Source: a virus | Length of the DNA stretch: 36,852 nt | Reading direction: 5' to 3' (one strand) | Virus record (IMG/VR): IMGVR_UViG_3300009537_001787 | Coordinates: 1-36,852 of that record | Shown here: in pieces, positions 8,558-36,852 of the stretch | How positions within the stretch are numbered: position 1 is the first letter of the stretch | How the letters are laid out: each line of letters opens with the position of its first letter | Translations under genes and position numbers: made by a program | Notes under the pieces: model-generated | Databases searched by the model: none | Seen by the model: the letters and a program-made list of their open reading frames with translations, nothing else | Told to the model about the DNA's origin: nothing

Positions 8558-9028
8558 TTATTGAGAAGCTGGAGCAGTCGGATCAGCAGTAATCTCAATT
8601 ACTCCATCGTTCGTCCAACTGTGCTCCTGAGCCCCGTACTCTTGGGTTAGGAGTATCGTCTCTACGCCCCTGATTGTGATGATGGTCGCTGCCTTCTTGT
8701 CATCAGCGTACCGGAAGCTATATTTCGGGAACCCGATGCACTCCAGGCAATCGTCCTTGATTACTCCGTGCCTGACCAGGGCATCCCAGATCGGCTTCAG
8801 GGTGGTCTGAAGGTTATCGGGATCACGGCGCCGCTTGTCGGGTAGAACGAACTCTACGGCCACTACAGCGCGTTCTAGAGGGGTTCCTGGTTTCCACCCG
8901 GCCTCCATCAATAGCATGTAGACATCATCATTGACCTGCTCCTGGACTTTATGGAGCACCATGTGGTGAGCCCGGCTGTTCCGGCTGAACTCCCTGGGCG
9001 GGAGGCCGGGGTAGATGAAGGTGACCAT
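8558..9028 (-). CDS. rusA: RusA-family Holliday-junction resolvase
   Basis: PDKRRRDPDNLQTTLKPIWDALVRHGVIKDDCLE matches the RusA catalytic-Asp signature (D.DN....K...D.L...G...DD). At 156 aa it carries a ~35-aa C-terminal extension. Confidence 0.85.
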   Translation of the reverse strand: MVTFIYPGLPPREFSRNSRAHHMVLHKVQEQVNDDVYMLLMEAGWKPGTPLERAVVAVEFVLPDKRRRDPDNLQTTLKPIWDALVRHGVIKDDCLECIGFPKYSFRYADDKKAATIITIRGVETILLTQEYGAQEHSWTNDGVIEITADPTAPASQ

Positions 9029-9285
9029 CAGAAAGGCCTGCTTGGTGTCCGAGGCCGGGGCAGCTTGAATGCGGCCCTCTTGCGGGAGATATCGCAGGCC
9101 TTGCAGACTCTCTGCTTCAGGTGGTCAGGGTTGTGCGATGCGTACCTCCCCGTTGAGATGGAAGTCCACCTCTCTCCCAGACAATCAGGGGATGTCTTGG
9201 AAGGACAGTCCACGTACCAGAACTTGGATGTGCTGGTCCTGCCTATCTTATCTCCGTAGGTGGAGTCACCCAGTTCAGGTTTCAT
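9028..9285 (-). CDS. Small Cys-containing (zinc-ribbon-like) protein (85 aa)
   Basis: ATG 9285 forms an ATGA overlap with the methyltransferase stop, whereas the track start 9327 would overlap it by 46 nt. The Cys pairs are YVDCP..PDC and VCKAC. Confidence 0.5.
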   Translation of the reverse strand: MKPELGDSTYGDKIGRTSTSKFWYVDCPSKTSPDCLGERWTSISTGRYASHNPDHLKQRVCKACDISRKRAAFKLPRPRTPSRPF

Positions 9286-9950
9286 AATAGCACTCCTTGA
9301 GCTAGTCGATTGACAGCAATCTCGCAATACTTCTCCTCGATCTCGATGCCTATGGCCTTACGCCTCAGGTCTTTGGCTGCACGGAGAGTGGTGCCGCTGC
9401 CCATGAACGGGTCCATGATTGTCTCACCATCCAGTGATCCTGCCAATATCAGGTTCTTCCATGCGTTTATTGGCTTAGCACATGGGTGAAGATTAGTTGA
9501 TGGGGGTTCAGTTAATATCCATGAAAGCTTTTGCCCAGGCAACCCTTGCCCAGCATGAGGGGATGTCCCGTAGTATAAGATGGGCTGTGAATCCGCACGT
9601 CCCCAACTTTGTAATCCGACAGATGCTGGTTGGTAAAAACAACCAAACGCATTACATGGGGGGTAACGTGTTACATTCTTATTTCCTGGCGTAAGAATAC
9701 ATCGTCCCCCCTTGGATGTTAAATAAGTTATAACCGATACGGCTATCTCTACAGCTTCTATACCGTCTTGTATAATACCGTAATCGTTTTTACGTCCAGC
9801 CTTTCGCTGCCCATTACGAGTATTGTTTTTACCGCTCACCCCGTACGGCGGGTCGGTCAGCACCAGATCCACCGGCCCGAGCAGGGGCAGTATCTCCCTA
9901 CAGTCGCCGTGGTAAATGGTGGAGAACTCATCCTGATAGTAGGGCTTCAT
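9282..9950 (-). CDS. DNA N6-adenine/N4-cytosine methyltransferase, beta class (N6_N4_Mtase type)
   Basis: Motif IV DLVLTDPPYGV is N-terminal, HPCAKPINAWKNLI is central, and motif I DPFMGSGTTLRAAKDLRRKAIGIEIE is C-terminal. This order defines the beta class. No partner endonuclease was recognised. Confidence 0.9.
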   Translation of the reverse strand: MKPYYQDEFSTIYHGDCREILPLLGPVDLVLTDPPYGVSGKNNTRNGQRKAGRKNDYGIIQDGIEAVEIAVSVITYLTSKGGRCILTPGNKNVTRYPPCNAFGCFYQPASVGLQSWGRADSQPILYYGTSPHAGQGLPGQKLSWILTEPPSTNLHPCAKPINAWKNLILAGSLDGETIMDPFMGSGTTLRAAKDLRRKAIGIEIEEKYCEIAVNRLAQGVLL

Positions 9951-10090
9951 GATAGTTCCGCCGTGCAGGTCTTGCAGGTAGCCACTCTCTGGGAAAAGTC
10001 CAGTTCGCTATGGTGCTTTCGCTTCTTGCAAAAATTACACAAAAAGTCTGGGACATTCAGTTGTCGTGCTTGCTGTTCTCTCTTGACCAT
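9947..10090 (-). CDS. Small zinc-ribbon protein (47 aa)
   Basis: ATG 10090 sits in a TAATG overlap with the upstream stop, whereas the track start 10156 would overlap by 67 nt. The motif is CNFC...CKTC. Confidence 0.45.
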   Translation of the reverse strand: MVKREQQARQLNVPDFLCNFCKKRKHHSELDFSQRVATCKTCTAELS

Positions 10091-10374
10091 TATCCTATTC
10101 TCCTCTTGGGCACATGAACGAAGTCGAACGTGCTGCTCCGGCCCTTGTAGTTGCAATCAGGGTAGGGGCAATCCCTCTCTGTGTTTCCGCCACACCACCA
10201 CCACTGTAGGTCAGGGTGCCGTGGGGCGAATCCCTCATTGGGGAACACGGCATGGCATGATGGGCAGATACGATGACGGGCTACTGGTCCTCCCGGTTTA
10301 TGGAAACTAACCGAGACATCCGATCCCAGCATCTGTAGGATTTCTTCTATGCTGAACTCATCCTCTAAATTCAT
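10090..10374 (-). CDS. Zinc-ribbon protein (94 aa) sharing an N-terminal motif with the prim-pol linker
   Basis: Its start overlaps the prim-pol stop by 4 nt. It has CPSC...CPYPDC, and its N-terminus EDEFSIEEILQMLGSDVSVSFHKPGGP parallels prim-pol aa 287-316. Confidence 0.6.
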   Translation of the reverse strand: MNLEDEFSIEEILQMLGSDVSVSFHKPGGPVARHRICPSCHAVFPNEGFAPRHPDLQWWWCGGNTERDCPYPDCNYKGRSSTFDFVHVPKRRIG

Positions 10375-12278
10375 ACAGCTATCGCTTCATGGAGGAACTC
10401 ATTCAGCAGTTCCTTCCCGAAGGCCATCAGTACCCAGGGCTCACCTCTGGCCTTGACCATCCAGAGCACTTCATGGAGGGTGATATAGGTGCCGGTCAAG
10501 TGCCCAGGTGTTGCCTGATCCCGCTTGAACATCTCTTCCGAGTACTCAGGGTGCAACCCTGCTGCCTGAGCGTCGATTTCCACTTCTGCCATAGTAAGTT
10601 CACTACTTTTCGCCTTGGCTACCAGACGATAGCGGTTCTCGTTCCGGTCTATCTCCTCCTTACGTCGTATCCAGCGGGTCCCCCGGATCGGGATGTGCTT
10701 TACCCCTTTCTCCTTGCAGCGAACACGGGCCAATCCAGTCACTACCAGGGCTTCTGGGGTGGCAGTGGGTAGGAATCCCTCGTACTGGGTGCTGCTGAGG
10801 AAATGGTAACAACCCGCAGCAGACAGGTTGTCGAATCTGATGACGTGTTCTCCCTTGCGCGTCGCTGTCTTTTGCAGCGATTCCAGATAGGATTCTGCCT
10901 CATCATGAGACATACCGTCGGCTGGGATATCTCTGGTGTACCAGTGATCGTAGCGCCGGATCTTCGGCATGATGCTGTAGTAATACAGCCGTCGCATGAA
11001 CTGCATGTTCTGCCGGTTATCCACCCAGGCGTGGCTGAACAACGTGGTCGCTTTCCATCGACGGCTATGCTCGTTGATCAGCAGGGACAGAACGCCGATG
11101 GGCTTTATACCGGGTACTTTCGGGAACACCTTCTCGGCCTCAGCCCAGAGGGTATCACCCGGTTTCTGCCGTTGTGTCGGAGATAACGTGTAAGGGGTTC
11201 CGCTACTAGTATTAGCTATACACGTTATCTCCGACAACGTGTCACGGTGTATCTGCTTTTCGGCTTGTTGTTGATCGACTTTCTTCTGATAGGCTTTCAT
11301 CTCCTCTGCTGAGATAGTCTCCTGGTAGACTGGCCCCGGAGTGTAGGGCTTGTGGAATGCTTTAGGTAGAGCCTTCCCGAGCATCCCCCTGATCTCGTCG
11401 ATGCTGAAGTGGTCGTCCTCTTTCTTGACGTACTCCCCTGCTTTGTTGGCTATCCGTGTGTATTCTTTGATGCCCCCATCGAAACGCTTACTGTACTTGT
11501 TATACCCCCGGTCAATGTCTATCTCCTGGAGTGTGGCAACCACGTCCTCGGGGGATGCGCCCGATTGAAAGAGGCGTACCCCCTCGGCATACAGGGCTGT
11601 GCTGCGGTCCCGTCCCCATTCTCGGTGGGACTGGATCAGGTCTTTCCTTATCTCGCCGGGCAGTAGAGGGGCCTCTATATTCGCAGCCTTCCCGCTAGCC
11701 TCCCACCTCTCCCGGATGGCCTGTATGGCCCACTCAGGAGCATCTGGGAGGTCTTCCGTGTCCATCCAGGGGTAGTTGGTTTCCCATTGGTATCTTTGCC
11801 CGGACTTGTGGAGAGACCCGACAGCTACGGCGTACCCTCGGGGCATGATGTCGTACTCGTTGGTCTTGTTGATGTTGATCAGGGGCAGATCGGCTGGTCT
11901 CTTGTAGTAGTAATGGAGGTGCCCATCTCCCCCGCCGGATCGTACTGTCACGGTGGGAGGGAGGCCACGATTGATAAAGGTCTGGTGCCATTCTGGGGAG
12001 TCAGGGGCAATATCGAGGATGCCTGACTTGCCCAGGTCGATGCCCCAGTTAGCCAGGGGCCACCTGTCCATCCATTCCCAGACTTGCTTGATGGAGTTGG
12101 AGCTATCGTTGACTCCGTTTCGGAGCAGGGGTGCCTTGCCGATGTCGTGCCCTTCGTGGCCCTTGCCACAAGCACAGGCTCCGTCAACAGGCCAGCAGAG
12201 GGGCAGAAGATAGAGGCCTTTCTTGACTAGATCAAGGGGGAATTGTGAAACTGATGTGGATGTGGTACTATGTGTCAT
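10371..12278 (-). CDS. Bifunctional DNA primase/polymerase (prim-pol, AEP superfamily) with an uncharacterised C-terminal half
   Basis: The N-terminal ~200 aa carry prim-pol-type motifs: HDIGKAPLL, SGILDIAPD, SGGGDGHLHYYYKRP and YDIMPRGYAVAVGSLHKSGQRYQW. The usual DxD reads DIA here. No Walker A or helicase domain was seen in aa 320-635. Confidence 0.8.
   Translation of the reverse strand: MTHSTTSTSVSQFPLDLVKKGLYLLPLCWPVDGACACGKGHEGHDIGKAPLLRNGVNDSSNSIKQVWEWMDRWPLANWGIDLGKSGILDIAPDSPEWHQTFINRGLPPTVTVRSGGGDGHLHYYYKRPADLPLININKTNEYDIMPRGYAVAVGSLHKSGQRYQWETNYPWMDTEDLPDAPEWAIQAIRERWEASGKAANIEAPLLPGEIRKDLIQSHREWGRDRSTALYAEGVRLFQSGASPEDVVATLQEIDIDRGYNKYSKRFDGGIKEYTRIANKAGEYVKKEDDHFSIDEIRGMLGKALPKAFHKPYTPGPVYQETISAEEMKAYQKKVDQQQAEKQIHRDTLSEITCIANTSSGTPYTLSPTQRQKPGDTLWAEAEKVFPKVPGIKPIGVLSLLINEHSRRWKATTLFSHAWVDNRQNMQFMRRLYYYSIMPKIRRYDHWYTRDIPADGMSHDEAESYLESLQKTATRKGEHVIRFDNLSAAGCYHFLSSTQYEGFLPTATPEALVVTGLARVRCKEKGVKHIPIRGTRWIRRKEEIDRNENRYRLVAKAKSSELTMAEVEIDAQAAGLHPEYSEEMFKRDQATPGHLTGTYITLHEVLWMVKARGEPWVLMAFGKELLNEFLHEAIAV
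11175..11236. repeat. Perfect 18-bp inverted repeat (TGTCGGAGATAACGTGTA / TACACGTTATCTCCGACA) with a 26-nt spacer, inside the prim-pol gene
   Basis: The arms are 11175-11192 and 11219-11236. The spacer contains the palindrome TACTAGTA (11204-11211). The element lies in the linker-coding region of prim-pol (about aa 348-368). Confidence 0.9.
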
Positions 12279-12313
12279 AGCTGATACTCCTGTTCGGTAT
12301 GGGTTAGTGGGGG

Positions 12314-12350
12314 CACCGGGTGAATCACTGGTTGCAAAACCAGGCCGGTG
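12314..12350 (-). promoter_or_regulatory. Nested stem-loop in the 87-nt gap upstream of prim-pol
   Basis: The outer stem is CACCGG (12314-19) / CCGGTG (12345-50). The inner stem is CTGGTT (12328-33) / AACCAG (12338-43) around a 4-nt loop. No U-run follows on the - strand, so it is not a classical terminator. Confidence 0.3.
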
Positions 12351-12365
12351 TCCCTCACGTTTGTA

Positions 12366-12773
12366 CTACTTTACTCCTTTTCTCTCCTCGATGCTAGCCT
12401 CTATCGCTGCTGCCATAGCCAGCAGGGGTGAGGGGCCTTCTCCCATATGGCACAGCCCGCCGTGCCACCACCCAACTAGATATATGCTCCCATTGTTTTC
12501 CAGCAAGTCGTAGTTTTCCTGTTTCGTTAGCCAGTGCAGCGCCTCTGCGGGGGAGACTGGCACAGCGACCTTAGTGTATGTGGGGTCGTTGGAAATCTCG
12601 GTCACGTAGCATTGCACCAGCCCTGGGAACCGCCGCCCGGTGCCACAGCAGCCCGTGCAGATCACCGGCCCTTCCTCCCCCGGATACAACGGACATCTCA
12701 TCCCGTCGTCATCGCACTCCCCGCACTCCATCGCCGCCAGCCGGGCCACGGCGGCTGTCTCCTGGTCGTTCAT
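12366..12773 (-). CDS. DnaJ-type zinc-finger (CxxCxGxG) protein, paralog B (135 aa)
   Basis: It has ECGECDDDG and ICTGCCGTGRRFPGL. Its C-terminal block VPVSPAEALHWL...GEGPSPLLAMAAAIEASI is shared with the upstream gene. Confidence 0.7.
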   Translation of the reverse strand: MNDQETAAVARLAAMECGECDDDGMRCPLYPGEEGPVICTGCCGTGRRFPGLVQCYVTEISNDPTYTKVAVPVSPAEALHWLTKQENYDLLENNGSIYLVGWWHGGLCHMGEGPSPLLAMAAAIEASIEERKGVK

Positions 12774-13198
12774 TCCTTCACCACCAGACTAGCCTCTATC
12801 GCTGCTGCCAGGGCCAGCAGTGGGGTGGGGCCTCTACCTGCTTGGGCTTCCTCTCCCCAGGTCGCCAGGTATCTCAGACCGATCATCACCTCTTCCACCA
12901 ATCTGAACTCTCGGCGGCCCATCAGCCAGTGCAGCGCACTTGCGGGAGAGACTGGGACAAGGCCGGTGCGATGGCAATACTCACATTTCCCTACACCCGG
13001 CGCCCACTGTTGGCACCCGCATGGCCGCACCAACCCCGGAAAATTACGCCCGGTGCCGTCGCAATCGGGGCAGGCCACCGGCCCTTCGTCGGTGGGGCGT
13101 ATCAGTCTGACCTCCTGCCGGCCAGCGCAAAACGGGCACTCCATTGCTGACAGCCGGGCCACGGCCTCTTGTTCCTGGATTGCGATGCTAGTCGTCAT
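12770..13198 (-). CDS. DnaJ-type zinc-finger (CxxCxGxG) protein, paralog A (142 aa)
   Basis: It has ECPFCAGRQ, ACPDCDGTGRNFPGL and KCEYCHRTG, plus VPVSPASALHWL...GRGPTPLLALAAAIEASL. It overlaps paralog B by 4 nt. Confidence 0.7.
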   Translation of the reverse strand: MTTSIAIQEQEAVARLSAMECPFCAGRQEVRLIRPTDEGPVACPDCDGTGRNFPGLVRPCGCQQWAPGVGKCEYCHRTGLVPVSPASALHWLMGRREFRLVEEVMIGLRYLATWGEEAQAGRGPTPLLALAAAIEASLVVKE

Positions 13199-16212: not shown

Positions 16213-16240
16213 CTGCCAACTAGCCCAAGCTAGTTGGCAG
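16213..16240 (-). promoter_or_regulatory. Perfect 12-bp stem / 4-nt loop hairpin after the first early gene
   Basis: CTGCCAACTAGC (16213-24), loop ccaa, GCTAGTTGGCAG (16229-40). It sits between genes 16253-16465 and 16013-16180. No U-tract follows on the - strand, so it may be a processing site, attenuator or non-canonical terminator. Confidence 0.5.
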
Positions 16241-16252
16241 AGTATGGGCAGG

Positions 16253-16465
16253 CTAGTTAGTTAGTTCAATCAGATGCTCCAATTCTGCTACAGCTTCGGT
16301 AAAGGATTCGAGCATCCCCTGCACCTCTTTCATGCTGTTGAAAAAGAAGCTAACGCTGTTGTTCTTGGATTGAACGCTGACGGTATAGCAGGAAGGCAAG
16401 TCTCGGATTACTATTTTCGGGGTATCATTGTGAAGGTGGATCTCGGTCGAAGTGTAGTTAGCCAT
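16253..16465 (-). CDS. First early-leftward gene, hypothetical (70 aa)
   Basis: ATG 16465 is preceded by GGAGGTTCACCCG (the track start is 16480). It is the first ORF after the divergent intergenic region. Confidence 0.55.
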   Translation of the reverse strand: MANYTSTEIHLHNDTPKIVIRDLPSCYTVSVQSKNNSVSFFFNSMKEVQGMLESFTEAVAELEHLIELTN

Positions 16466-16716
16466 CGGGTGAACCTCCATTTCTTTGATATGCTTAGTAT
16501 ACTACACCATGCTACTGATGTATATACTTTTCAGGTGTGCTTCTGGTTCCAATATGGTGAACTTTTGGGGTCAGAATAGGGAAGGTTCGAAGGCTAGGGG
16601 GAACTAAGTAAGTTGAAGCGAAGCAGGGGAATTGATAGGATAAACCCATAGCGTATGAAACACCGGCCTGAGGGATGCACGTACAGCGCCCTCTGGCCGT
16701 TATCCGGGGGGGAAAG
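16466..16716. promoter_or_regulatory. Divergent control region between the - strand early block and the + strand block
   Basis: This 251-nt non-coding gap is flanked by diverging genes and contains the 10-bp palindrome TAGTATACTA (16495-16504). The leftward sigma70-like candidate is TATACA-N17-TATACT (the - strand of 16496-16524). The rightward candidate is TTGATA (16632-37)-N16-TATGAA (16654-59). Host promoter rules are unknown. Confidence 0.4.
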
Positions 16717-17193
16717 ATGCAAGACCAGCTAGGCGTAAGCTTGGAAAGTGACGGTTTCCCAGCAGGTGCTAATTCTGCTCAGCGGGAGATGTGGGCTAAC
16801 CAGGAATTGTTTCTCCGGGCCTATGCAATGTGCGGCAAGCGTACCAGGTCAGCGGATAGCGCAGGGGTTAGTGTCGAAGCTGTGGAAAGGTGGGTGTCAT
16901 CGGATGTGTATTCTTTCAAGAAAAGAATGGCAGCAAGTCATGCCCGTTACGTGGAGAAATTAGAGGCAGAAATGGACGCAACAATCGAGGCAAAACCGAC
17001 TAACGCAGCCATCCTGCAAATCTTCCGATTGAAGGCTGAACATCCAGAGAAATACCGGGAAGAAGTCAAGGTGATTAGCAATGAGGCGCCGGCATTAATG
17101 TGGATGAGATTGAGGGAACTGGCTGGTGATAAGGGTGCTGTGGTTGAGGGAGAAGTTACGGAGTTGAATTCTGGTGATAGTGATACAGTGTAG
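16717..17193 (+). CDS. HTH protein resembling small-terminase (Terminase_2-like) N-terminal domains (158 aa)
   Basis: NQELFLRAYAMCGKRTRSADSAGVSVEAVERWVSSDVYSFKKRM follows the pattern qe.F...Y...g....A...aGvs...v..W. The later LKAEHPEKYREE motif is also common in TerS-like proteins. However, the gene lies 3.7 kb upstream of terL. ATG 16717 is preceded by a G-rich SD. Confidence 0.5.
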   Translation: MQDQLGVSLESDGFPAGANSAQREMWANQELFLRAYAMCGKRTRSADSAGVSVEAVERWVSSDVYSFKKRMAASHARYVEKLEAEMDATIEAKPTNAAILQIFRLKAEHPEKYREEVKVISNEAPALMWMRLRELAGDKGAVVEGEVTELNSGDSDTV

Positions 17194-17210
17194 CTTGTTT
17201 CTGCTGTTCT

Positions 17211-17224
17211 AGTTACTAGTAACT
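17211..17224. promoter_or_regulatory. Perfect 14-bp palindrome AGTTACTAGTAACT
   Basis: Self-complementary on inspection. It begins 18 nt after the stop at 17193 and shares the TACTAGTA core with the loop of the prim-pol inverted repeat. Confidence 0.7.
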
Positions 17225-17244
17225 TGTATCTATATTATCTCTAT

Positions 17245-17259
17245 ACGTTATCGCCGACA
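17245..17259 (+). promoter_or_regulatory. Third copy of the 15-nt motif ACGTTATCNCCGACA
   Basis: ACGTTATCGCCGACA matches 14 of 15 positions of the arm of the 11175-11236 inverted repeat (ACGTTATCTCCGACA). The sub-motif CGCCGACAT recurs at 17329-17337. Confidence 0.7.
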
Positions 17260-17351
17260 TTATGATGTAGCTTACCTGGTTCTTGCTCTCTAATTAGGGG
17301 GGTGTTGAGCTATAAGCCACCGGATAAACGCCGACATAAAGTGAGGTAGTC

Positions 17352-17444
17352 ATGGATCGTGATAATGGTTGTTTCTTGTCTGGTTGTCTGTTACTGATTT
17401 GTCTGATTGCTGGTATTGCTGTTGGTCTGAGTATGCTCTGGTAA
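17352..17444 (+). CDS. Possible 30-aa single-TM micro-protein (MDRDNGCFLSGCLLLICLIAGIAVGLSMLW)
   Basis: ATG is preceded by GTGAGGTAGTC, followed by a hydrophobic stretch. It lies in an A-poor region where open frames are cheap, so support is weak. Confidence 0.3.
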   Translation: MDRDNGCFLSGCLLLICLIAGIAVGLSMLW

Positions 17445-17580
17445 GTGTTCTGCTGGTGTCTCAACAAGTGTTCTCCAAGTGTCTCAACAAGTGCATCTAA
17501 AGTGTTCTAACAAGTGTCTTGCTGGTGTTCTGCTGAGTGTATCTCTGGTGTCCTAGCAAGTGTCTCTGAGGTGGTTTCTT
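17443..17580. repeat. Six contiguous degenerate 23-bp tandem repeats; GTGT cores phased at alternating 11/12-nt spacing
   Basis: The units start at 17443, 17466, 17489, 17512, 17535 and 17558 (aagtgttctgctggtgtctcaac, aagtgttctccaagtgtctcaac, and so on). GTGT (once GTGC) begins at 17445, 17456, 17468, 17479, 17491, 17502, 17514, 17525, 17537, 17548 and 17560, and GTGG at 17571. Confidence 0.9.
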
Positions 17581-17995
17581 GCTGCATCGCTGGTTGTTGC
17601 TCTCTTGATCGTGCTGATTGGATGGCCCACTGTTCTTGGCTTGCTGGTCGTTTGTCTGCTGTCTCGCTGGTGGTCTGATCGATGATGTCTGCTCTGGTGG
17701 TCGTTGCCTTCCTGCTCTCTTTGCTTGTTGTGGCTGCTTCTCTGGTTCTCTTGCTCTTCTCTCGCTGCTACTCTGCCTCTCTGATCTGCTGGCTCGTTGC
17801 TCTACTGTCCTCTCTGCTTACTCTGGTCCTCTTCCTTCTTGCTATTCTGTCCTTCTGCTCTCTGTTCTCGTATGGCCTCTTGTCTCCTTGTTAGCTGCTG
17901 TCCTGGTTCTTGCTTCTCTGTCTTCTGCTTCTTTGTCTTCTGTTCTGGGCTGGTAGGGTGTCTCTCTTTTTTGTCTGTGTGCCTTGTTATGGGGG
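17571..17995 (+). other. Adenine-depleted tract on the + strand, with no stop codons in most frames
   Basis: By hand count there are 18 A in the 420 nt from 17581 to 18000 (about 4 percent), and none in 17701-17760. The remainder is T/C/G-rich, and overlapping L/S/C/V-rich ORFs appear in all three + frames. Confidence 0.9.
17682..17894 (+). CDS. Possible 70-aa two-TM hyper-hydrophobic protein (holin-like topology), inside the A-depleted tract
   Basis: Tandem ATG ATG start with GGTGG 9 nt upstream. In this frame 40 of 70 codons have T at position 2, a membrane-protein-like period-3 signal. Only 1 of 70 codons ends in A, which argues for a nucleotide-level constraint instead. Confidence 0.3.
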   Translation: MMSALVVVAFLLSLLVVAASLVLLLFSRCYSASLICWLVALLSSLLTLVLFLLAILSFCSLFSYGLLSPC

Positions 17996-18124
17996 TATGG
18001 CTTATGAATGTTGTGTTTTAGCTGGTGCCTACCCCCCTGACTGCTACTTTCAAGAAAAGAGCTTCTTGCTAAGATCTGGCAGGCTGATTACAATGGAGCG
18101 CAACACGTATGGATCTGAGGAGTA

Positions 18125-18421
18125 ATGTGGATCGGCTGGGCCAGTCCTGAGAGGTTAACACCGAGGCAGATGGAGTGTGCGGAGCTAGTAGCCATGGGAT
18201 GCTCTAATATGGAGATAGGGCGCCGCATGAAGATCAAGATCGAGTCGGTAGAGAACATGATCCATCAGATATTACAGAAGCTGGGATACGAGAGTGATTT
18301 ACGTTGGAATGTCCGGGTAAGGTTAGCGAACTGGGTAAACTTTGGGAGTGAAACAGATGAGATACATGTTTATAGTTATGTTGATGATGATGGGATGTGC
18401 CGGATCGAGTCAGCTTCCTGA
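18125..18421 (+). CDS. LuxR/GerE-type (sigma-70 region-4-like) HTH protein (98 aa)
   Basis: LTPRQMECAELVAMGCSNMEIGRRMKIKIESVENMIHQILQKLG matches the LuxR-C/GerE HTH signature. The SD is GAGGAG. Confidence 0.8.
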   Translation: MWIGWASPERLTPRQMECAELVAMGCSNMEIGRRMKIKIESVENMIHQILQKLGYESDLRWNVRVRLANWVNFGSETDEIHVYSYVDDDGMCRIESAS

Positions 18422-18797
18422 TGTGGTATTGGAGGATGACGCCCCTATTATGAGGATCCAGGCTGTGGAGGAGGGGTCCAGAAAGGTTGATGCTGAGGTA
18501 TCAGACAGGTCTGAGTGGTTGGACACCTGCCGGGAGTTGGTATTTATTCGGGAGGATGTAGAGGATAGGGGAAGTGGGCCTGACCATTCTCTGGGGGTTA
18601 CTGCGGAGGAGTTGAAGGATGCTGATGAATGGGTCTGGAACCTGGACAGCAGACCAGAGGAAGGGACATCGTTTTTAGCGGACGTGGAGGAGGAGGAAGC
18701 CTGGTTATGTGGGGTAGCAGGGGATTACCGCATTGAGGTTTCTGCTTACCGGGACGGTGTGGGGAGGGATTACTATATAGAGTTCGAGGTTAGGTAA
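18357..18797 (+). CDS. Acidic lipoprotein (146 aa)
   Basis: MRYMFIVMLMMMGCAGS is a signal peptide with a lipobox-like MMGC. GGGAG lies upstream. The mature part is rich in D/E. The gene overlaps the LuxR-type gene by 65 nt in another frame. Confidence 0.65.
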   Translation: MRYMFIVMLMMMGCAGSSQLPDVVLEDDAPIMRIQAVEEGSRKVDAEVSDRSEWLDTCRELVFIREDVEDRGSGPDHSLGVTAEELKDADEWVWNLDSRPEEGTSFLADVEEEEAWLCGVAGDYRIEVSAYRDGVGRDYYIEFEVR

Positions 18798-18897
18798 TAT
18801 CAAGACTCACTGTATCTGGGGTCATGAGTACACGGAGGAGAATACGGGCAGGTGTTCTCGAGATTCTCCCAGGTATTATTGCCGGATTTGCGCCCGG

Positions 18898-19233
18898 ATG
18901 CGGTGGCACGAGAGCAAGAGGAAGGAGATACCGGACAGGATGCCTGAGACTCCGCCCCAGTTGGGGAAGAATGGCAGGAAGTTGAAGACTCATTGCAAGA
19001 AGGGGCACCCGTTGAATCTGATCAGCACAGGGCAGAGCCCTCATCAGCGCCGGTGTCTTGTTTGTGTCTCGGAGAGGAACCGTCGTGCGTATCTGGCCAG
19101 GAAGGAAGCTGCCGGGACGAAAAAGAAGCCCAGAAAGACGTATTGTATCAGGGGGCATCGCTTTTCCAGGGATAACATTTACTGGGCTCGGACATGCAAG
19201 GAGTGTGTCAGGCTGAGGCAGGTAACGTTGTAG
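18898..19233 (+). CDS. Zinc-binding protein with repeated KT(H/Y)CxxGH...CxxC modules (111 aa from the first ATG; probably longer)
   Basis: The modules are KTHCKKGHPLN...RRCLVCVSERNRR and KTYCIRGHRFSRDNIYW.RTCKECVRLR. A third in-frame module, KTHCIWGHEYTEEN...YYCRICARMRW, lies upstream of the first ATG in an open frame that begins at 18781. Confidence 0.65.
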   Translation: MRWHESKRKEIPDRMPETPPQLGKNGRKLKTHCKKGHPLNLISTGQSPHQRRCLVCVSERNRRAYLARKEAAGTKKKPRKTYCIRGHRFSRDNIYWARTCKECVRLRQVTL

Positions 19234-19340
19234 TGAAGAAGTTAGAGAAGCTGTGTATACTGGGGGTTATATTCTCTGGATTGTCGATGATATCCAGTTT
19301 TATTGTGATGGGGATTCTACTTTCGTTGGTTAATCCATAG
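19233..19340 (+). CDS. Possible 35-aa single-TM protein (VKKLEKLCILGVIFSGLSMISSFIVMGILLSLVNP), absent from the ORF track
   Basis: The GTG start sits in a TAGTG overlap, the same junction used at 69 and 5501. The ORF fills the gap before the strong RBS of the next gene. Confidence 0.35.
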   Translation: MKKLEKLCILGVIFSGLSMISSFIVMGILLSLVNP

Positions 19341-19350
19341 AGGAGGAGAT

Positions 19351-19533
19351 ATGAAGACTCTGGTACGTAGCGCTTTTGACATGGCATTTGAGGGGTTGGA
19401 TGTAGCATTGAGGCTGCTGACCACGGCCTATGGGCTGGTAACTGGCTCTGGGGAGAATGTTCTGGAGACGGTACACCGGCAGGTATCTCTGTTGAGGAAG
19501 GCTGTTGACGATGCTGTGGACGGGCTGAACTAA
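19351..19533 (+). CDS. Hypothetical helical protein (60 aa)
   Basis: Strong RBS: GAGGAGGAGATATG. Confidence 0.65.
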   Translation: MKTLVRSAFDMAFEGLDVALRLLTTAYGLVTGSGENVLETVHRQVSLLRKAVDDAVDGLN

Positions 19534-19600
19534 TGCCGAAGAAGACGAAGCCCAACCGTTGAGCTAAAACCGGCAAGATTCTTCCTGGACGGAAGAAGTA

Positions 19601-19780
19601 ATGGTGGTCTCCTGGTGCCCTCTATGTGGCACTGGAATGCCTGAAGAAGAGTGGATTCTCAACTTCTGGCCTGCCTGTTCGCAGGACTGCTATACGAAGT
19701 ACCACACTCTGGTACAGGACTTGCTGGTAATGATGGGGCAGAAAGGCCGGGATGCCGAGGCCGAAGAACAACAAGGCTGA
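19601..19780 (+). CDS. Possible zinc-ribbon protein (59 aa, MVVSWCPLCGTGMPEEEW...CSQDC...), absent from the ORF track
   Basis: ATG follows TAA (TAATG). It has CPLC...C..DC and fills an otherwise non-coding stretch. Confidence 0.4.
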   Translation: MVVSWCPLCGTGMPEEEWILNFWPACSQDCYTKYHTLVQDLLVMMGQKGRDAEAEEQQG

Positions 19781-20003
19781 GACTCCCCGCAAGCCATCGA
19801 AGACCCGGTGGGTCCGGGCCCGGGCCGGGGATCACGCTGTGATGGAGTGGTTCCCTGCCGGGACTACCTGGAATGTGGTGGATGTGGTGATGAAGGGTGA
19901 CGGATATATCTTTGTCCACTTTGAGCAGGTAGAGACTCAGACCAATCTGCACTATGGGAAGACTTACGAAAGACGCAGCGAAGGTGGACGTCATCTTTCC
20001 TAG
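19752..20003 (+). CDS. Hypothetical protein with a basic N-terminus (83 aa)
   Basis: ORF-track entry, co-oriented. It overlaps the preceding small ORF by 29 nt, so the start is uncertain. Confidence 0.5.
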   Translation: MPRPKNNKAETPRKPSKTRWVRARAGDHAVMEWFPAGTTWNVVDVVMKGDGYIFVHFEQVETQTNLHYGKTYERRSEGGRHLS

Positions 20004-20042
20004 GTGATTGATATTAGTGGTGATTTTTGTCACGATTAGGGC

Positions 20043-20405
20043 ATGACAATAGAAGAGCGGGTAGCTCAGCTAGAATCTCGGCTAGACAGTTTAAGCTTAG
20101 AAATAACCCGCCGGGCCAAGGCGCATAACGAGATCCATGAACATCAGCAGGTTGCTATCGACACCGCCAAGTCAGATGTTGACCGCAGGCTGCACGATAT
20201 GAATAACATCAGAGCCCAGTTAATGACTCAGTCCAACACTTTTGTCAGCAGAGAGACCAGTGAAGTCTGGAGGTCTGCTTATGATACCCGTGTCCGTGCC
20301 CTGGAGAATCGCAACGCCAATTTGGATGGCAAGCTCTGGGCTGGTGGTGCGCTGGTTATTATTGTAGTGACCCTGATTTCGGGAGCTTTCAGGTTTATAG
20401 GATAG
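20043..20405 (+). CDS. Coiled-coil protein with a C-terminal TM anchor (120 aa)
   Basis: The N-terminal 95 aa are helical and heptad-like. The C-terminus WAGGALVIIVVTLISGAF is hydrophobic. Confidence 0.6.
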   Translation: MTIEERVAQLESRLDSLSLEITRRAKAHNEIHEHQQVAIDTAKSDVDRRLHDMNNIRAQLMTQSNTFVSRETSEVWRSAYDTRVRALENRNANLDGKLWAGGALVIIVVTLISGAFRFIG

Positions 20406-20414
20406 GAGGAAGAG

Positions 20415-20552
20415 ATGCCAAAGGGAATAGGGTACCCGGACAACAAGGGAACGGCCCGTAAGAACAAGCCCAAGAAGACGGGTCTGGACAGGGCGGCTGA
20501 CATGTCGGGTCGCACCTTTAGCAATAAGGGGAAGGCCAAGGGCAAGAAGTAA
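20415..20552 (+). CDS. Small highly basic protein (45 aa, K/R/G-rich), absent from the ORF track
   Basis: Strong RBS AGGAGGAAGAG. The stop forms a TAATG overlap with the next gene. Confidence 0.5.
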   Translation: MPKGIGYPDNKGTARKNKPKKTGLDRAADMSGRTFSNKGKAKGKK

Positions 20553-20956
20553 TGGTTACAAAACTGGCAGAGGAATGGGCCAGGTCCCGATCAGACCAGA
20601 ATGAGTTGGGTGTTCAGACAATGTTATCCGCATCTTTGCGTAATGGCATTACTGGAGAGATGGACAATCTCATCCTCAGACAGATGGATCATGCTATTGC
20701 CAAAAAATGCCTGACTGATGGGACAAGTCCCAGGTCTGCCATTATTGAGGAAGAGCGTGATGCTTCCAGGAGAGCGTGGGAATACACACTCCGGGTACAG
20801 ACAGAGAAAACCCCGACTCTGGCTGGATTCAGCATGGATCTTATCGAGGAATTAGCCGAGGCCAAGCGCATTTTGAGATTCCCCTGGTGGAAGCTGGCCT
20901 GGTGGCGAATAAGGGGACGCCCAATATCCGGTTACCCCTGGCAGTTGATCGAATAG
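20552..20956 (+). CDS. Hypothetical protein (134 aa); positional candidate for the small terminase subunit
   Basis: It lies immediately upstream of terL and overlaps it. No HTH was recognised by eye. Confidence 0.55.
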   Translation: MVTKLAEEWARSRSDQNELGVQTMLSASLRNGITGEMDNLILRQMDHAIAKKCLTDGTSPRSAIIEEERDASRRAWEYTLRVQTEKTPTLAGFSMDLIEELAEAKRILRFPWWKLAWWRIRGRPISGYPWQLIE

Positions 20957-22386
20957 TCACAGCAACGGCTCTCCCTCAGGTTCCTACCGCTGCCAAGCTG
21001 GTTTTTGATCAGATTGGATGGCAAGCTACCGGCATCGAGCAGACTCAGATTGTAGCCTGCCGGAAGCAGGGTATTCTTATTACTGGGGGAGAGAGTGGCG
21101 GCAAGTCGAATGTGACTGCCGCCCATGTGGTGGGCAGAATCCCCAGTGACGCTGCCAATAATCCGAGTATCGGCAACGGTGATGGTGAGCCCCTGATCTA
21201 CTGGCTGGTGGGGGATGACTACTCTCAGGTGACTGAGGAGTTCCATGGGATTGAGGAGCATCTGATATCTCAATGGGGAGAAACTCTGGTCCATGCCAGC
21301 AAGAGAGTGGACCCTGGTTTTATTGAGGTAAAGATCCCAGGTCACAGGTTCCCGATAATCCGTCTGGAGACCAAGTCGGGCCGTGATCCCAGCAAGATAT
21401 CCAGAGTCAGGCCCCAGGGCATTGTCCTCTGTGAGGCTGGTCAGATCGATCCGATGATCTTTGACCGATGTTACGGTAGGACCATTCAGGGGGGCGGCTG
21501 GATATTAATTGTTGGAACTTTGGAAGGCAGCATTGGCTGGTTTCCCCAGTTGGCCCAGGCCTGGTCCAGTGGATTTGGAAAGACAACCAGATTCAAGCTC
21601 CCGGCCTGGACCAACACTCATTTATATCCTGGTGGCAGGCAAGACCCCAAGATCCTGGAACTGGAGCGAGTCCAGAGCGACGAATATTTCATGGAGCGGA
21701 TTGCCGGTGAGGTAGTTCCTCCTAAAGGACTGGTCATCAGTGAGTTCCGTGCTGACATTCATGTCAGGGACGTGAAGTTTGATCCAGCCCATCCTGTGCA
21801 TTTATGGGAAGACCCTGGATATGGGCTAGGATCGGCTCATGCGCTGGAGGTAGCGCAGAATATTGATGGTCAGATCAGAATCTTTGATGAAATATATGAT
21901 CGAGGGTTACTGACCAATGATGTTATTGCAATCGCTCAAAAACGGCCTTGGTGGAAAGCCAAAAAATACCTCGTCTCAGATCCCCACTATAAAAACCAGC
22001 ATCACTCCGTACATTCTGTGCACGAAGTGTGGGAAAAGGAAGCTGGTCTCATTGCAGGTGGTGAGCCAGTTAGAGAAGGTCCTGGAAGAGAGCGAATCAA
22101 GACCTTTCTTAAAGTGGACCCTCTCACAGGACATCCTGGACTGGTTATCGCTCCACACTGCCAGGGAGTGCTCTCTGAGGCTGGTGCTGCCGTTGACCCC
22201 TTTGATAACCAGTCCTACCATCCCTGGCGGTGGAAGGTTGACCGTTATGGTAACGTGATCGGGGACACTCCCGAAGATAAATACAACCACGCCTGGAAAG
22301 CTATCAGCTATGGGCTGATATACAACTTTGGTTACACTGAGGCGCAGCAGAGGCGTGTTGTGAAAGTGACATATCGAGGTAGATAA
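20902..22386 (+). CDS. terL: Terminase large subunit
   Basis: It has Walker A ITGGESGGKS and Walker-B-like GIVLCEAG. The nuclease motifs are WEDPGYGLGSAHALEV..IDGQIRIFDEIY and EDKYNHAWKAISYGL. The start is uncertain: GTG 20902 (55-nt overlap), GTG 20887, or ATG 20776 (181-nt overlap). Confidence 0.9.
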   Translation: MANKGTPNIRLPLAVDRIVTATALPQVPTAAKLVFDQIGWQATGIEQTQIVACRKQGILITGGESGGKSNVTAAHVVGRIPSDAANNPSIGNGDGEPLIYWLVGDDYSQVTEEFHGIEEHLISQWGETLVHASKRVDPGFIEVKIPGHRFPIIRLETKSGRDPSKISRVRPQGIVLCEAGQIDPMIFDRCYGRTIQGGGWILIVGTLEGSIGWFPQLAQAWSSGFGKTTRFKLPAWTNTHLYPGGRQDPKILELERVQSDEYFMERIAGEVVPPKGLVISEFRADIHVRDVKFDPAHPVHLWEDPGYGLGSAHALEVAQNIDGQIRIFDEIYDRGLLTNDVIAIAQKRPWWKAKKYLVSDPHYKNQHHSVHSVHEVWEKEAGLIAGGEPVREGPGRERIKTFLKVDPLTGHPGLVIAPHCQGVLSEAGAAVDPFDNQSYHPWRWKVDRYGNVIGDTPEDKYNHAWKAISYGLIYNFGYTEAQQRRVVKVTYRGR

Positions 22387-36414: not shown

Positions 36415-36822
36415 ATGGTAACTTTACTAAATGCTCCAAAAGAACCCTCTGTTCTGTACGTGCCTGAGCATGTCAAAGCCCCTGAGCCAGAGCCTGTTCT
36501 GCTGGGAGGTATTGATAACGCCAAGAAGGACGTGCAGGGACGATGGATTAGCACCCGGACCTGGGTGCTGACCAACAAGAAGAACGGCAGGAAGCAGACC
36601 ATCTGTCTGTTGGACAACCAGATGTCAGATGATGCCATAGCTACCGCTTATGGGGAGGCTGTGGAGAACTTTTATCGTGACACCAACGATCTCCCCCGGC
36701 TGGCTACCTACACTGTCGAGCAGAGAAAGGAGGTTGGTGCTGCTATCAGGCGATACCGGGAGTTCAAGGCGAAGATGGCTGAGTCCACGAACAATAAAGT
36801 ATTCTACCGTGGGGTCCGTTAG
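36415..36822 (+). CDS. Hypothetical protein (135 aa), possibly head-tail joining by position
   Basis: The ORF runs into the terminal overlap. Its TAG overlaps the tail-fibre GTG (TAGTG) across the circular junction. Confidence 0.6.
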   Translation: MVTLLNAPKEPSVLYVPEHVKAPEPEPVLLGGIDNAKKDVQGRWISTRTWVLTNKKNGRKQTICLLDNQMSDDAIATAYGEAVENFYRDTNDLPRLATYTVEQRKEVGAAIRRYREFKAKMAESTNNKVFYRGVR

Positions 36823-36852
36823 TGGCTCACTACAACACAAAGAACTTTGCAG
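36754..36852. repeat. Terminal overlap, copy 2 (identical to 1-99)
   Basis: Direct comparison of the two window ends. It is either a 99-nt assembly overlap of a circular or circularly permuted genome, or a short direct terminal repeat. Confidence 0.95.

Follow-up and report, generated by a model that had tools for sequence, protein, structure and literature searches.

A conserved, adenine-starved tract beside the small terminase gene of an uncultivated tailed phage is probably part of a cis-acting module

Introduction

Why does a phage with a genome of ordinary length keep more than 400 nucleotides (nt) of DNA in which one strand has almost no adenine? The question is raised by the IMG/VR virus record IMGVR_UViG_3300009537_001787, whose 36,852 nt (called the window here, and analyzed over their whole length) represent a complete phage genome in a circular assembly, with an exact 99-nt direct repeat at 1-99 and 36754-36852 and 36,753 unique base pairs (bp). 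The A-starved tract sits in the rightward (late) arm of this genome, downstream of terS, the gene for the small terminase subunit. We conclude, with a probability of about 75%, that it is one arm of a conserved, mostly non-coding, two-part cis-acting module that is linked to terS in a family of uncultivated tailed phages. The module probably consists of a distal array of short repeats followed by 200-1100 bp of strand-skewed DNA that ends abruptly at a single-copy site of ~70 bp. In the window, the features on which this conclusion depends are as follows.

16675-17193, plus strand: terS (phrog_4044, E 3e-13), the constant neighbor of the module in all relatives
17443-17573, at the distal edge of the tract: degenerate direct-repeat array with a period of ~23 or 11.5, unit AAGTGT(T)CT..., 4-6 copies
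~17560-17996, plus strand: the A-starved, T-rich tract (A ~4%, T 44%, C 27%, G 25%)
17911-17946, within the tract: 15-nt tandem repeat TGCTTCTCTGTCTTC, 2.5 copies, kept with a different copy number in the closest relative, L001 (1722-1766)
17976-18065, plus strand: the conserved R-box site, a ~70-bp site of direct-repeat boxes at which the skew ends

Results and Discussion

Composition of the tract

Between 17581 and 18000 (420 nt) the plus strand contains 18 A, 185 T, 113 C and 104 G, and it has A-free runs of 84 nt (17686-17769) and of 61 nt from 17894. The lowest count of A in any 420 nt of the genome is 17, against a median of 101 (binomial P ~4e-27). This tract is also the one place in the window where the share of a base stays under 8% (100-nt windows) over more than a few positions, and no other base becomes so rare at any point of the genome. 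Seven of the 18 A are within GAT, and GATC occurs at 17607, 17677 and 17783, each time inside TGATC. The leftover A are found mainly in GAT or at the first positions of Ile and Met codons, a placement expected of strong pressure against A over a little coding. An earlier note on this DNA had reported the 18 A, the seven within GAT, the three GATC sites and the lack of any A in 17701-17760, and all of these were reproduced here. The sliding-window composition that it had proposed as a check likewise places the tract as the lowest in A of the genome.

The left limit of the tract is at ~17560, and its right end falls at the conserved motif that starts near 17994. Its G+C content is ~51% and its GC skew is zero. 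From 16500 to 21500 the GC skew of the coding strand is otherwise strongly positive (+0.15 to +0.37), and the A-poor tract is the sole interruption. The tract is not an assembly artefact. This is because independent assemblies of relatives show the same property and because near-identical contig pairs from separate samples (L002/L003 and L183/L184) agree, with no differences within their tracts.

Occurrence of the module in related phages

Forty TerS homologues were found in metagenomes. The module-bearing set comprises the window, L001, L002/3, L004, L005, L010, L183/4, L185, L186 and L187, representing 10 independent loci, and a pattern scan added two distant lineages from IMG/VR, L017 and L032/L039/L022/L042. 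Every terS relative that has the motif GTATGGCTTAGG also has a T-rich, A-poor tract of 200-1100 nt on the terS-sense strand, and in each the tract ends abruptly at the motif. The earlier note had argued that absence of the skew from close relatives would suggest drift or an artefact; the skew is present in them. In the closest relative, L001 (70% TerS identity), the A-poor tracts are downstream of terS, and in L002/L003, L004, L005, L010, L183/L184, L185, L186 and L187 (TerS identity 36-62%) a tract of 500-1100 nt is found upstream of the gene. Overall, most loci have the module upstream of terS, and it follows the gene in the window, L001 and L017; it is always within ~1 kb and always co-oriented. 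The order of elements is terS-tract-site-methyltransferase-terL in L017 and tract-site-terS-terL in the L032 lineage (terL encodes the large terminase subunit).

Two compositions were observed. In the window and L001, A alone is starved (C is 25-33%) and the tract is not G/T-rich. Most relatives have tracts of a G/T type, poor in both A and C (G ~0.39, T 0.31-0.43, A 0.11-0.16, C 0.07-0.15), with a GC skew of about +0.6 versus zero in the window tract. In the L032/L039/L022/L042 lineage, which has a G+C content of ~40%, the tract is 200 nt long with 50% G, 6-10% A and 8% C. At 1150-1345 of L032, and in its relatives, this tract is made up of G runs (GGGG-GGGGGG) and is prone to form G-quadruplexes, unlike the window tract. 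Both flavors of skew can be found in one genome, as L001 has a short segment poor in A and C (803-905) right after terS, ahead of its copy of a small open reading frame (ORF) that is discussed below.

Regardless of composition, all tracts share one polarity, with the R-box site at the 3' end of their T(G)-rich strand. Averaged over the 10 loci, the frequency of A decreases from 0.22 at -700 nt to 0.07 at -50 nt and is 0.36 just past the motif. This gradient is tied to the R-box site, and a weak mirror-image skew is present just past it. Repeats mark the distal edge of the tract: relatives have TCGTTG(CTGGTG) boxes at ~33-nt spacing 300-550 nt from the motif, which is the relative distance of the array in the window. 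The association of the tract with the adjacent repeat array that the earlier note had suspected therefore holds as architecture. The array of the window contains GCTGGTGT twice, and its unit, AAGTGTTCTC..., may resemble the TGTTCACC iterons to which the P4 alpha primase-helicase binds.

Could the tract be filler, produced without selection? Low-complexity slippage of short T/G(C)-rich units, perhaps acting as a stuffer for genome length, might generate such DNA, and its skew would then be a local mutation bias. A shortage of both A and C on one strand is in keeping with the spectrum of deamination in DNA exposed as single strands. Internal short repeats, a lag-3 signal in the autocorrelation of the tracts, tract lengths that vary from 200 to 1100 nt and the different copy numbers of the 15-nt repeat in the window and L001 are all consistent with such an origin. 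Against this, the property, its polarity, the gradient and the exact boundary are kept down to ~40% TerS identity and across changes in gene order, and two different compositions converge on a single folding property (see below). The tract diverges no faster than terS (mismatch ~0.24, versus 0.46 at third positions of terS), islands of sequence within tracts are conserved and the near-identical contigs have no differences. We consider non-adaptive filler very unlikely.

The phages that carry the module are remote from those in culture. No DNA similarity between the window and cultured phages was found, and comparison of its TerS and TerL proteins with those of cultured phages gave only remote matches to actinophages or Bordetella phages. 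Scans of IMG/VR with TerS and with a neighboring protein of 151 residues gave no close relative, and the sole IMG/VR match to DNA patterns specific to the window and L001 (L182) had no skew and was discarded as a chance match. A scan of GTDB genomes with a TerS profile gave no match, hence no host, and an ABC-transporter gene in L002 was uninformative as to the host (32% identity). Some members of the family adjoin ABC-transporter genes or carry integrases (L002 1-2452, L184 1-1611), and at least part of the family is thus temperate or integrated.

The R-box site

Within the window, the R-box site begins with R1 GTGTGCCTTGTTATGG and R2 GGTATGGCTTATG, the latter with a core (ATGGCTTA, at 17997) that is invariant. 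A spacer rich in T separates these from R3 GGTGCCTACC, after which come CTGAC and the A-rich box TTTCAAGAAAAGAGC. Across loci, a G/C run leads into GTATGGCTTAGG; past a T-rich spacer there is a second box (GGTATGCC/GGTGCCTA), then CTGAC and lastly the A-rich box TTTCAGAAAAAAGGG. An alignment of 8 loci shows that three GTATGSCTTRGG-like direct repeats (11-12 bp) are conserved. The genome has a single match to GTATGSCTTRGG with no more than one mismatch, and matches with two mismatches are at the level of chance (13 vs 10.9). As the site is unique in the genome, we rejected the possibility that the R-box is a multi-copy promoter element. A scan of genomes with a 16-nt motif gave chance matches only, and the literature searched contains no mention of the R-box motif in connection with phages.

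In all module-bearing loci, the R-box site is 0.17-0.8 kb from terS, on either side of the gene and always co-oriented with it. Downstream of the site, the window has two further genes of relevance to packaging.

18898-19233, plus strand: HNH endonuclease gene (phrog_826 and phrog_1492), between the R-box site and terL
20776-22386, plus strand: terL (weak match to phrog_6672; 22-25% identity to annotated actinophage terminases)

Sets of HNH and terminase genes are typical of cos-type packaging. The R-box site itself has features of a packaging site in its adjacency to terS, its single copy and its short repeated boxes, which are candidates for TerS binding. Based on these features, we infer that it is a putative terminase recognition or cleavage site (cos or pac). 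Because the tract stops at a conserved, single-copy site and the module travels with terS, a connection with packaging is more plausible than one with replication.

A second conserved element, AAATTTTTTGAAA...CTAAAAGGNCTTTCCAC, was noted just upstream of terS in six relatives (L002 9655-9700, L004 1005-1050, L185 5640-5700, L183 4440-4490, L186 1425-1470 and L187 745-785). It echoes the A-rich box of the R-box site (AAAAGGGCTTT). Hairpins were also observed near terS. The window has a perfect 12-bp hairpin at 16213-16250, followed by AGAGTATGGGC, ~430 nt upstream of terS. In L002 (9712-9791), L004 (1090-1170) and L005 (1665-1745), the interval between the R-box site and terS contains one hairpin or two, in which base changes are compensatory, ahead of AGAGTATACC. 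This element may be a conserved operator, terminator or other packaging element.

Coding capacity of the tract

DNA that lacks A cannot spell stop codons, and the three plus-strand frames of the tract are stop-free over 96-336 nt. The earlier note had listed four overlapping plus-strand ORFs (17618-17956, 17682-17894, 17797-18021 and 17910-18125), all of which are present, and had considered that they might be genuine overprinted membrane micro-proteins. Two reading frames merit attention.

17560-17685, plus strand: ORF of 41 residues, MSLRWFLAASLVVALLIVLIGWPTVLGLLVVCLLSRWWSDR, whose stop codon overlaps the ATG of the next ORF (ATGA)
17682-17894, plus strand: open frame of 70 residues, which shares only its last ~12 codons and stop with L001 and is not conserved as a protein overall

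The 41-residue ORF has a homologue in L001, at a different place (909-1049), with 21 of 39 residues identical. Mismatches between the two are distributed 12/10/26 over the three codon positions in a protein-guided alignment and 5/5/14 in a DNA-only alignment (P ~0.03), and the proportion of synonymous differences (pS 0.71) exceeds that of nonsynonymous ones (pN 0.30). This is a weak coding signature, and no further homologue was found among 5.8 billion proteins. Codons ending in A number 3 against 7.4 expected from the codon usage of the window genome. On this comparison, ORF 17560-17685 is probably a real small membrane-protein gene, and to that extent the suggestion of micro-proteins stands.

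It does not extend to the 70-residue frame, the "best frame" of the earlier note. This region is 75% identical to L001 (local score 102, versus 36.5 +/- 6.7 for shuffles), with mismatches of 18/14/16 by codon position, that is, with no codon-position bias, and with eleven indels, mostly not multiples of three (including 1, 6 and 11 nt). For comparison, terS of the window and L001 has mismatch frequencies of 0.20/0.15/0.46. The stretch past the stop codon of the 70-residue frame is equally conserved (77% identical). The tract as a whole is homologous to L001 1390-1857, with a local alignment z of ~5-10 over shuffles, and 17682-17996 is conserved at the level of DNA without codon bias. Only 1 of 69 codons in the 70-residue frame ends in A, versus 11.3 expected for the same amino acids with the codon usage of the window genome (P<1e-4), in agreement with the one A-ending codon in 70 counted previously. 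The search of 1.84 billion representatives gave this ORF one low-complexity match only, and neither ORF of the tract matches a PHROG family. The purging of synonymous A, together with conservation that lacks codon bias and tolerates frame-breaking indels, bears out the proposal that constraint is at the nucleotide level rather than that of ordinary coding.

These observations can be set against the view that the tract is an ordinary, if unusual, group of genes for small membrane proteins (holin-like, superinfection-exclusion or moron genes) whose highly hydrophobic products require T at codon position 2, with the remaining bias due to drift. The conserved ORF 17560-17685, with its third-position-biased divergence and pN below pS, the overlaps of successive ORFs by ATGA and TAATG, the enrichment of T at codon position 2 in both the 41- and 70-residue ORFs and the remaining A at first positions of Ile and Met codons are as this view would have it, and thymine-rich DNA is known to spawn transmembrane ORFs (PMC7005711). 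It does not account for the loss of synonymous A, the frame-breaking indels of the 70-residue frame or the lack of meaningful homologues and PHROG families. The Cys and Ser contents are those set by an A-free alphabet (Cys is 0.6% genome-wide). In addition, the plus strand of the same locus in G/T-type relatives is full of stops, with no conserved ORF on either strand, yet the skew and its boundary are kept. A membrane-gene cluster is therefore improbable as the explanation of the tract.

Coding on the minus strand was also rejected, as that T-free strand has no start codons, relatives have no conserved ORF there and indels are not in threes. Among the alignable tracts of L185, L187 and L004, which share conserved islands (e.g., TTATCGTTGCTGG), indels are of 3, 5, 9, 11, 13, 14, 16, 18 and 22 nt. 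Because of these lengths, the lag-3 autocorrelation is best read as triplet-scale slippage rather than coding; a helical-phase (10-11 nt) periodicity was absent from the autocorrelation. One segment within the G/T tract of L004 (660-840) has a strong 3-nt periodicity (chi2 30-37) with G at one phase, and the Joint Genome Institute (JGI) annotation calls a minus-strand ORF there. That segment could be a local coding remnant or a small gene. For the window contig, no record of JGI gene calls was found. Overall, the tract as a whole is probably not a protein-coding gene: most of it is constrained at the nucleotide level, and its first 126 nt overlap one probable gene of 41 residues. The other open frames are by-products of an alphabet unable to spell stop codons.

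Folding of the single strands

What is shared by tracts of such different composition? It is not purine/pyrimidine asymmetry, GC skew or the folding of the sense RNA. The property common to both compositions is that either strand, as single-stranded DNA, has almost no pairing partner within itself. A 300-nt stretch of tract folded as single-stranded DNA gives -3.0 kcal/mol in the window and -2.8 in L187, versus -32 kcal/mol for an ordinary segment. Folded as RNA, the minus strand of all tracts gives -3 to -20 kcal/mol per 200 nt, versus a genome mean of -56. The two folding windows in the window's tract are the least structured of 367, for both strands, and the native plus strand folds worse than 195-196 of 200 dinucleotide shuffles.

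The earlier note had suggested a pyrimidine-rich structured or sponge RNA, and this we rejected, as both strands fold worse than shuffles. Rfam 15 gave no matches at the gathering threshold in the window and six related loci, and no tRNA or tmRNA was found. H-DNA (triplex) formation was similarly rejected, as the G/T-type relatives are without purine/pyrimidine asymmetry.

A role for the RNA might take a less structured form. The tract might serve as a long transcribed, largely untranslated spacer in a late or packaging operon, with a composition that avoids termination and RNA cleavage. The G-rich, C-poor sense RNA of the relatives would be a poor substrate for Rho loading, the C/U-rich RNA of the window would be stop-free and covered by ribosomes, and RNA free of A would be out of reach of endoribonucleases that need A, for example toxins specific for ACA or AAAU. 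At all loci the tract has the direction of terS and of the genes around it, no intrinsic terminator was predicted across 16400-18500, and both the stop-free plus frames and the compositions of the tracts fit such a spacer. These constraints would explain how a spacer is built, not why one of up to 1.1 kb exists in a 37-kb genome, and the site-anchored gradient is left without explanation. Moreover, the folding energy of the sense RNA of G/T-type tracts is not unusual, and the two types have no sense-RNA property in common, the shared property being one of single-stranded DNA; there was also no Rfam match. We regard an RNA-level spacer as quite unlikely.

Strands free of structure would also suit a zone of replication initiation, an idea close to the single-strand initiation or priming zone suggested in the earlier note. 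In such a zone, the array would provide iterons for a prim-pol or helicase, the tract would be a platform for unwinding, R-loop formation or priming, and the R-box site would be the point of RNA-to-DNA transition or of loading. Arrays resembling iterons are present at the distal edge in both the window (23-nt period) and relatives (TCGTTG boxes ~33 nt apart). The tract has 34 occurrences of CTG, the triplet that serves DnaG-type primases as template, versus 12.3 expected from its composition (z 6.9, 2.8-fold). The window has a Prim-Pol gene, and in both L005 and the P0006 contig the tract is immediately preceded by a gene for a single-stranded DNA-binding protein (SSB). In G/T-type relatives the GC skew of the non-template strand is very high, which is a hallmark of R-loop-prone DNA (ColE1 RNA II, T4 oriF/G and mitochondrial conserved sequence blocks, CSBs). 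The R-loop element that the earlier note had offered does not suit the window, however, as the GC skew of its tract is zero and its U-rich RNA would give weak hybrids. There is no AT-rich unwinding element (G+C ~51%), the skew peaks at the terS-linked site and not at the arrays, and the sign change of the AT skew at the site is opposite to that expected of a bidirectional origin. The constant neighbor across rearrangements is terS and no replication gene. An origin of replication is thus unlikely.

A possible role at the packaging end

A cis element tied to packaging is indicated because the module is linked to terS across rearrangements, its site is single-copy with direct repeats, HNH, TerS and TerL genes are found together, the gradient is anchored on the site and the property common to all tracts matters only when the DNA is single-stranded. 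How such an element would act can be sketched by analogy, and we hold the complete scheme, though the best fit of the explanations considered, as tentative, with the odds against it: the tract would be an arm of the packaging region that serves as an exposed 3'-ended strand after cutting by terminase. If the R-box site is the cos or pac of the terminase, and if packaging runs away from the tract, then the tract would adjoin the end left free by terminase, and would be packaged last and injected first. The T/G-rich, A-poor strand would be the 3'-ended strand at this free end. Through loss of A (and C), with T (and G) kept, that strand would be unable to fold on itself and would be rich in G/T Chi-like words. 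Resection of the end by a helicase-nuclease of the RecBCD/AddAB type or by a 5'-3' exonuclease would then yield a long 3' tail without structure, which would attenuate degradation and be an optimal substrate for strand invasion by a RecA-type protein. As a result, the concatemer would be protected and recombination-dependent replication could be re-primed. Some of the skew may not be adaptive and may instead be a scar left by mutation (C to T and A to G deamination) in DNA that is repeatedly single-stranded. Deamination may contribute in this way in the G/T-type relatives; it does not explain the C-containing tract of the window.

The logic of Chi orientation relative to cos is established in lambda. 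Chi sites cluster at the terminase-exposed right end of lambdoid phages that have no recombination modules (PMC12315714), and they are found near the packaging ends of P1 (bioRxiv 10.1101/2021.07.08.451572). An unbiased screen of k-mers in six tracts ranked GCTGGTG and GCTGGT highest; these words are the core of Escherichia coli Chi. GCTGGTG, seven bases of the E. coli octamer, occurs 18 times in the tracts versus 2.8 in dinucleotide shuffles, and the window tract has 7 matches to the E. coli Chi sequence with no more than one mismatch, versus 1.3 expected (P 0.002). The octamer GCTGGTGG is present five times on the plus strand and never on the minus strand of the genome, and GCTGGTG 32 times versus none inside tracts, where such an imbalance follows trivially from composition.

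Several findings weigh against the proposed role at a packaging end, and the first of these concern Chi. In ten tracts, GCTGGTG is embedded in a longer repeated box, TCGTTGCTGGTG, at ~33-nt intervals, and the base that follows it is T 11, A 8, G 7 and C 6 times, so that G is not preferred. The L001 tract has no GCTGGTG. Of the 5 exact copies of the octamer GCTGGTGG in the genome, one is in the strict A-poor core and 4 are outside the tract, versus 3.2 expected there (Markov-3), which is no enrichment. Other findings concern the tract and the site. The tracts of the window and L001 are not G/T-rich, so a GT-rich sequence preferred by RecA and a deamination scar both fit the relatives better, and no hypermutation was seen, as the near-identical contig pairs lack excess variation in their tracts. 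Three terS relatives, L007-L009 (42-48% identity), have no module within their short available flanks. No contig ends at the motif; three independent IMG/VR contigs, L039, L022 and L042, stop 111-165 nt upstream of it, inside the G/T tract, which is either an assembly breakdown in low-complexity or G-rich DNA or a hint of a real discontinuity. Alternatively, the R-box site may have a regulatory function or be an origin. We rejected Chi as the full explanation once ten tracts and Markov expectations had been taken into account, and Chi-like content is at best a supporting detail.

The furthest extension of the packaging-end proposal is one that we think doubtful. It is that the module is a dedicated "end buffer", 0.2-1.1 kb of non-coding DNA that gives a telomere-like protection of ends encoded in composition, A-less in the window and A-and-C-less in relatives, and that doubles as a cradle for micro-genes. 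Loss of one or two bases from a single strand would be its sole conserved feature, and its 3' tail would resist or divert the helicase-nucleases of the host. No description of a base-starved tract beside a packaging site, or of a GT-rich tract near terminase genes, was found in the literature searched. If the proposal is true, the module would be an undescribed class of cis-acting phage DNA, in which selection acts on a bulk physical property of one strand and not on a motif, and it would extend the finding that certain phages have Chi sites at their exposed packaging end. A graded starvation of a single base that ends at a conserved site beside terS would also be a signature of the packaging site and its polarity in uncultivated contigs. 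Even if the mechanism is wrong, it has still to be explained why at least 10 independent loci keep the property, its polarity and its sharp boundary.

Genes surrounding the module

The interval between terS and the array and the region just past the R-box site contain the following additional features.

17352-17444, plus strand: hydrophobic ORF of 30 residues with an upstream GAGG Shine-Dalgarno-like sequence
18066-18094, plus strand: sigma-70-like promoter match, TTGCTA-17-TACAAT, right after the R-box site
18125-18421, plus strand: gene for a LuxR/GerE, sigma-region-4-like protein of 98 residues, the first gene past the R-box site

An intergenic gap of 158 nt separates terS from the 30-residue ORF, which aligns weakly to the C-terminal part of L001 ORF 1149-1328 and is possibly a small membrane protein. 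The ATG of the LuxR/GerE-like gene overlaps the stop codon of ORF 17910-18125 (TAATG). The 151-residue acidic protein used in the scans above is encoded at 18342-18797. It has an N-terminal lipobox (MLMMMGC) and no family match, and it may be a lipoprotein moron or an exclusion protein.

The leftward early arm (8558-13198, minus strand) encodes a RusA-like resolvase, an N6/N4 DNA methyltransferase, the Prim-Pol (635 residues) and a weak Q-like antiterminator. In PHROG scans of ~20 ORFs, which found RusA and left many ORFs without a family, no recombinase, Gam-like or anti-RecBCD gene was recognized.

Relationship to known systems

The systems closest to the proposed role are the Chi sites clustered at ends in lambdoid phage LLS and 60-odd relatives without Rec modules, in Pseudomonas phage MD8 and around pac in P1 (PMC12315714; bioRxiv 10.1101/2021.07.08.451572). 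As in those phages, the module is positioned next to a putative packaging cut, on the side presumed not to be held by terminase, and has a strictly single polarity, with the G/T-rich, Chi-like strand reading 5' to 3' in the direction of the putative end. The tracts are enriched in GCTGGTG, and the role proposed, taming of a helicase-nuclease and the feeding of recombination, is the same. In those phages, exact copies of the host Chi octamer number 8-32 and are scattered through several kb of ordinary coding sequence. Here, no tract has more than one, the eighth position is unconstrained and no enrichment was seen genome-wide. What is conserved here is the bulk composition of a dedicated non-coding block, not a word.

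Accessory regions of packaging sites, such as lambda cosQ-cosN-cosB, SPP1 pacL/pacC/pacR and the hexamer clusters of P1 pac, are ~100-300 bp long and have no base-starved strand. The module resembles them in its single-copy site with short direct repeats, its adjacency to terS and its extended flank, a flank that known sites need in cis. Unlike them, it extends over 400-1100 bp with 4-10% A, to which nothing comparable was found in the literature searched, and here cleavage is putative. R-loop origins (ColE1 RNA II, T4 oriF/oriG and mitochondrial CSBs) are also strand-asymmetric regions of several hundred nt that end at a defined site, and the non-template strand of the relatives is similarly G-rich. 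They differ from the module in that the window tract has no GC skew and the linkage here is to terS, not to replication genes.

Telomeres of linear eukaryotic chromosomes have G/T-rich 3' strands, such as the irregular TG1-3 of yeast. By analogy only, the tracts are likewise a few hundred bp of degenerate G/T-rich, A/C-poor repeats with the G/T strand running 5' to 3' toward a DNA end. Here there is no telomerase, the end is hypothetical and the window variant contains C, so that the resemblance is not homology.

Finally, the tract resembles the thymine-rich DNA from which transmembrane ORFs arise de novo (PMC7005711), in that T-rich, stop-poor DNA gives rise to hydrophobic ORFs, and this may explain the origin of the 41-residue gene. 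That model describes neutral intergenic DNA of yeast. In contrast, the T-rich DNA here is under a conserved constraint at the nucleotide level, and it offers a natural case of constrained DNA, T-rich and free of stops, within which a gene for a small membrane protein seems to have emerged.

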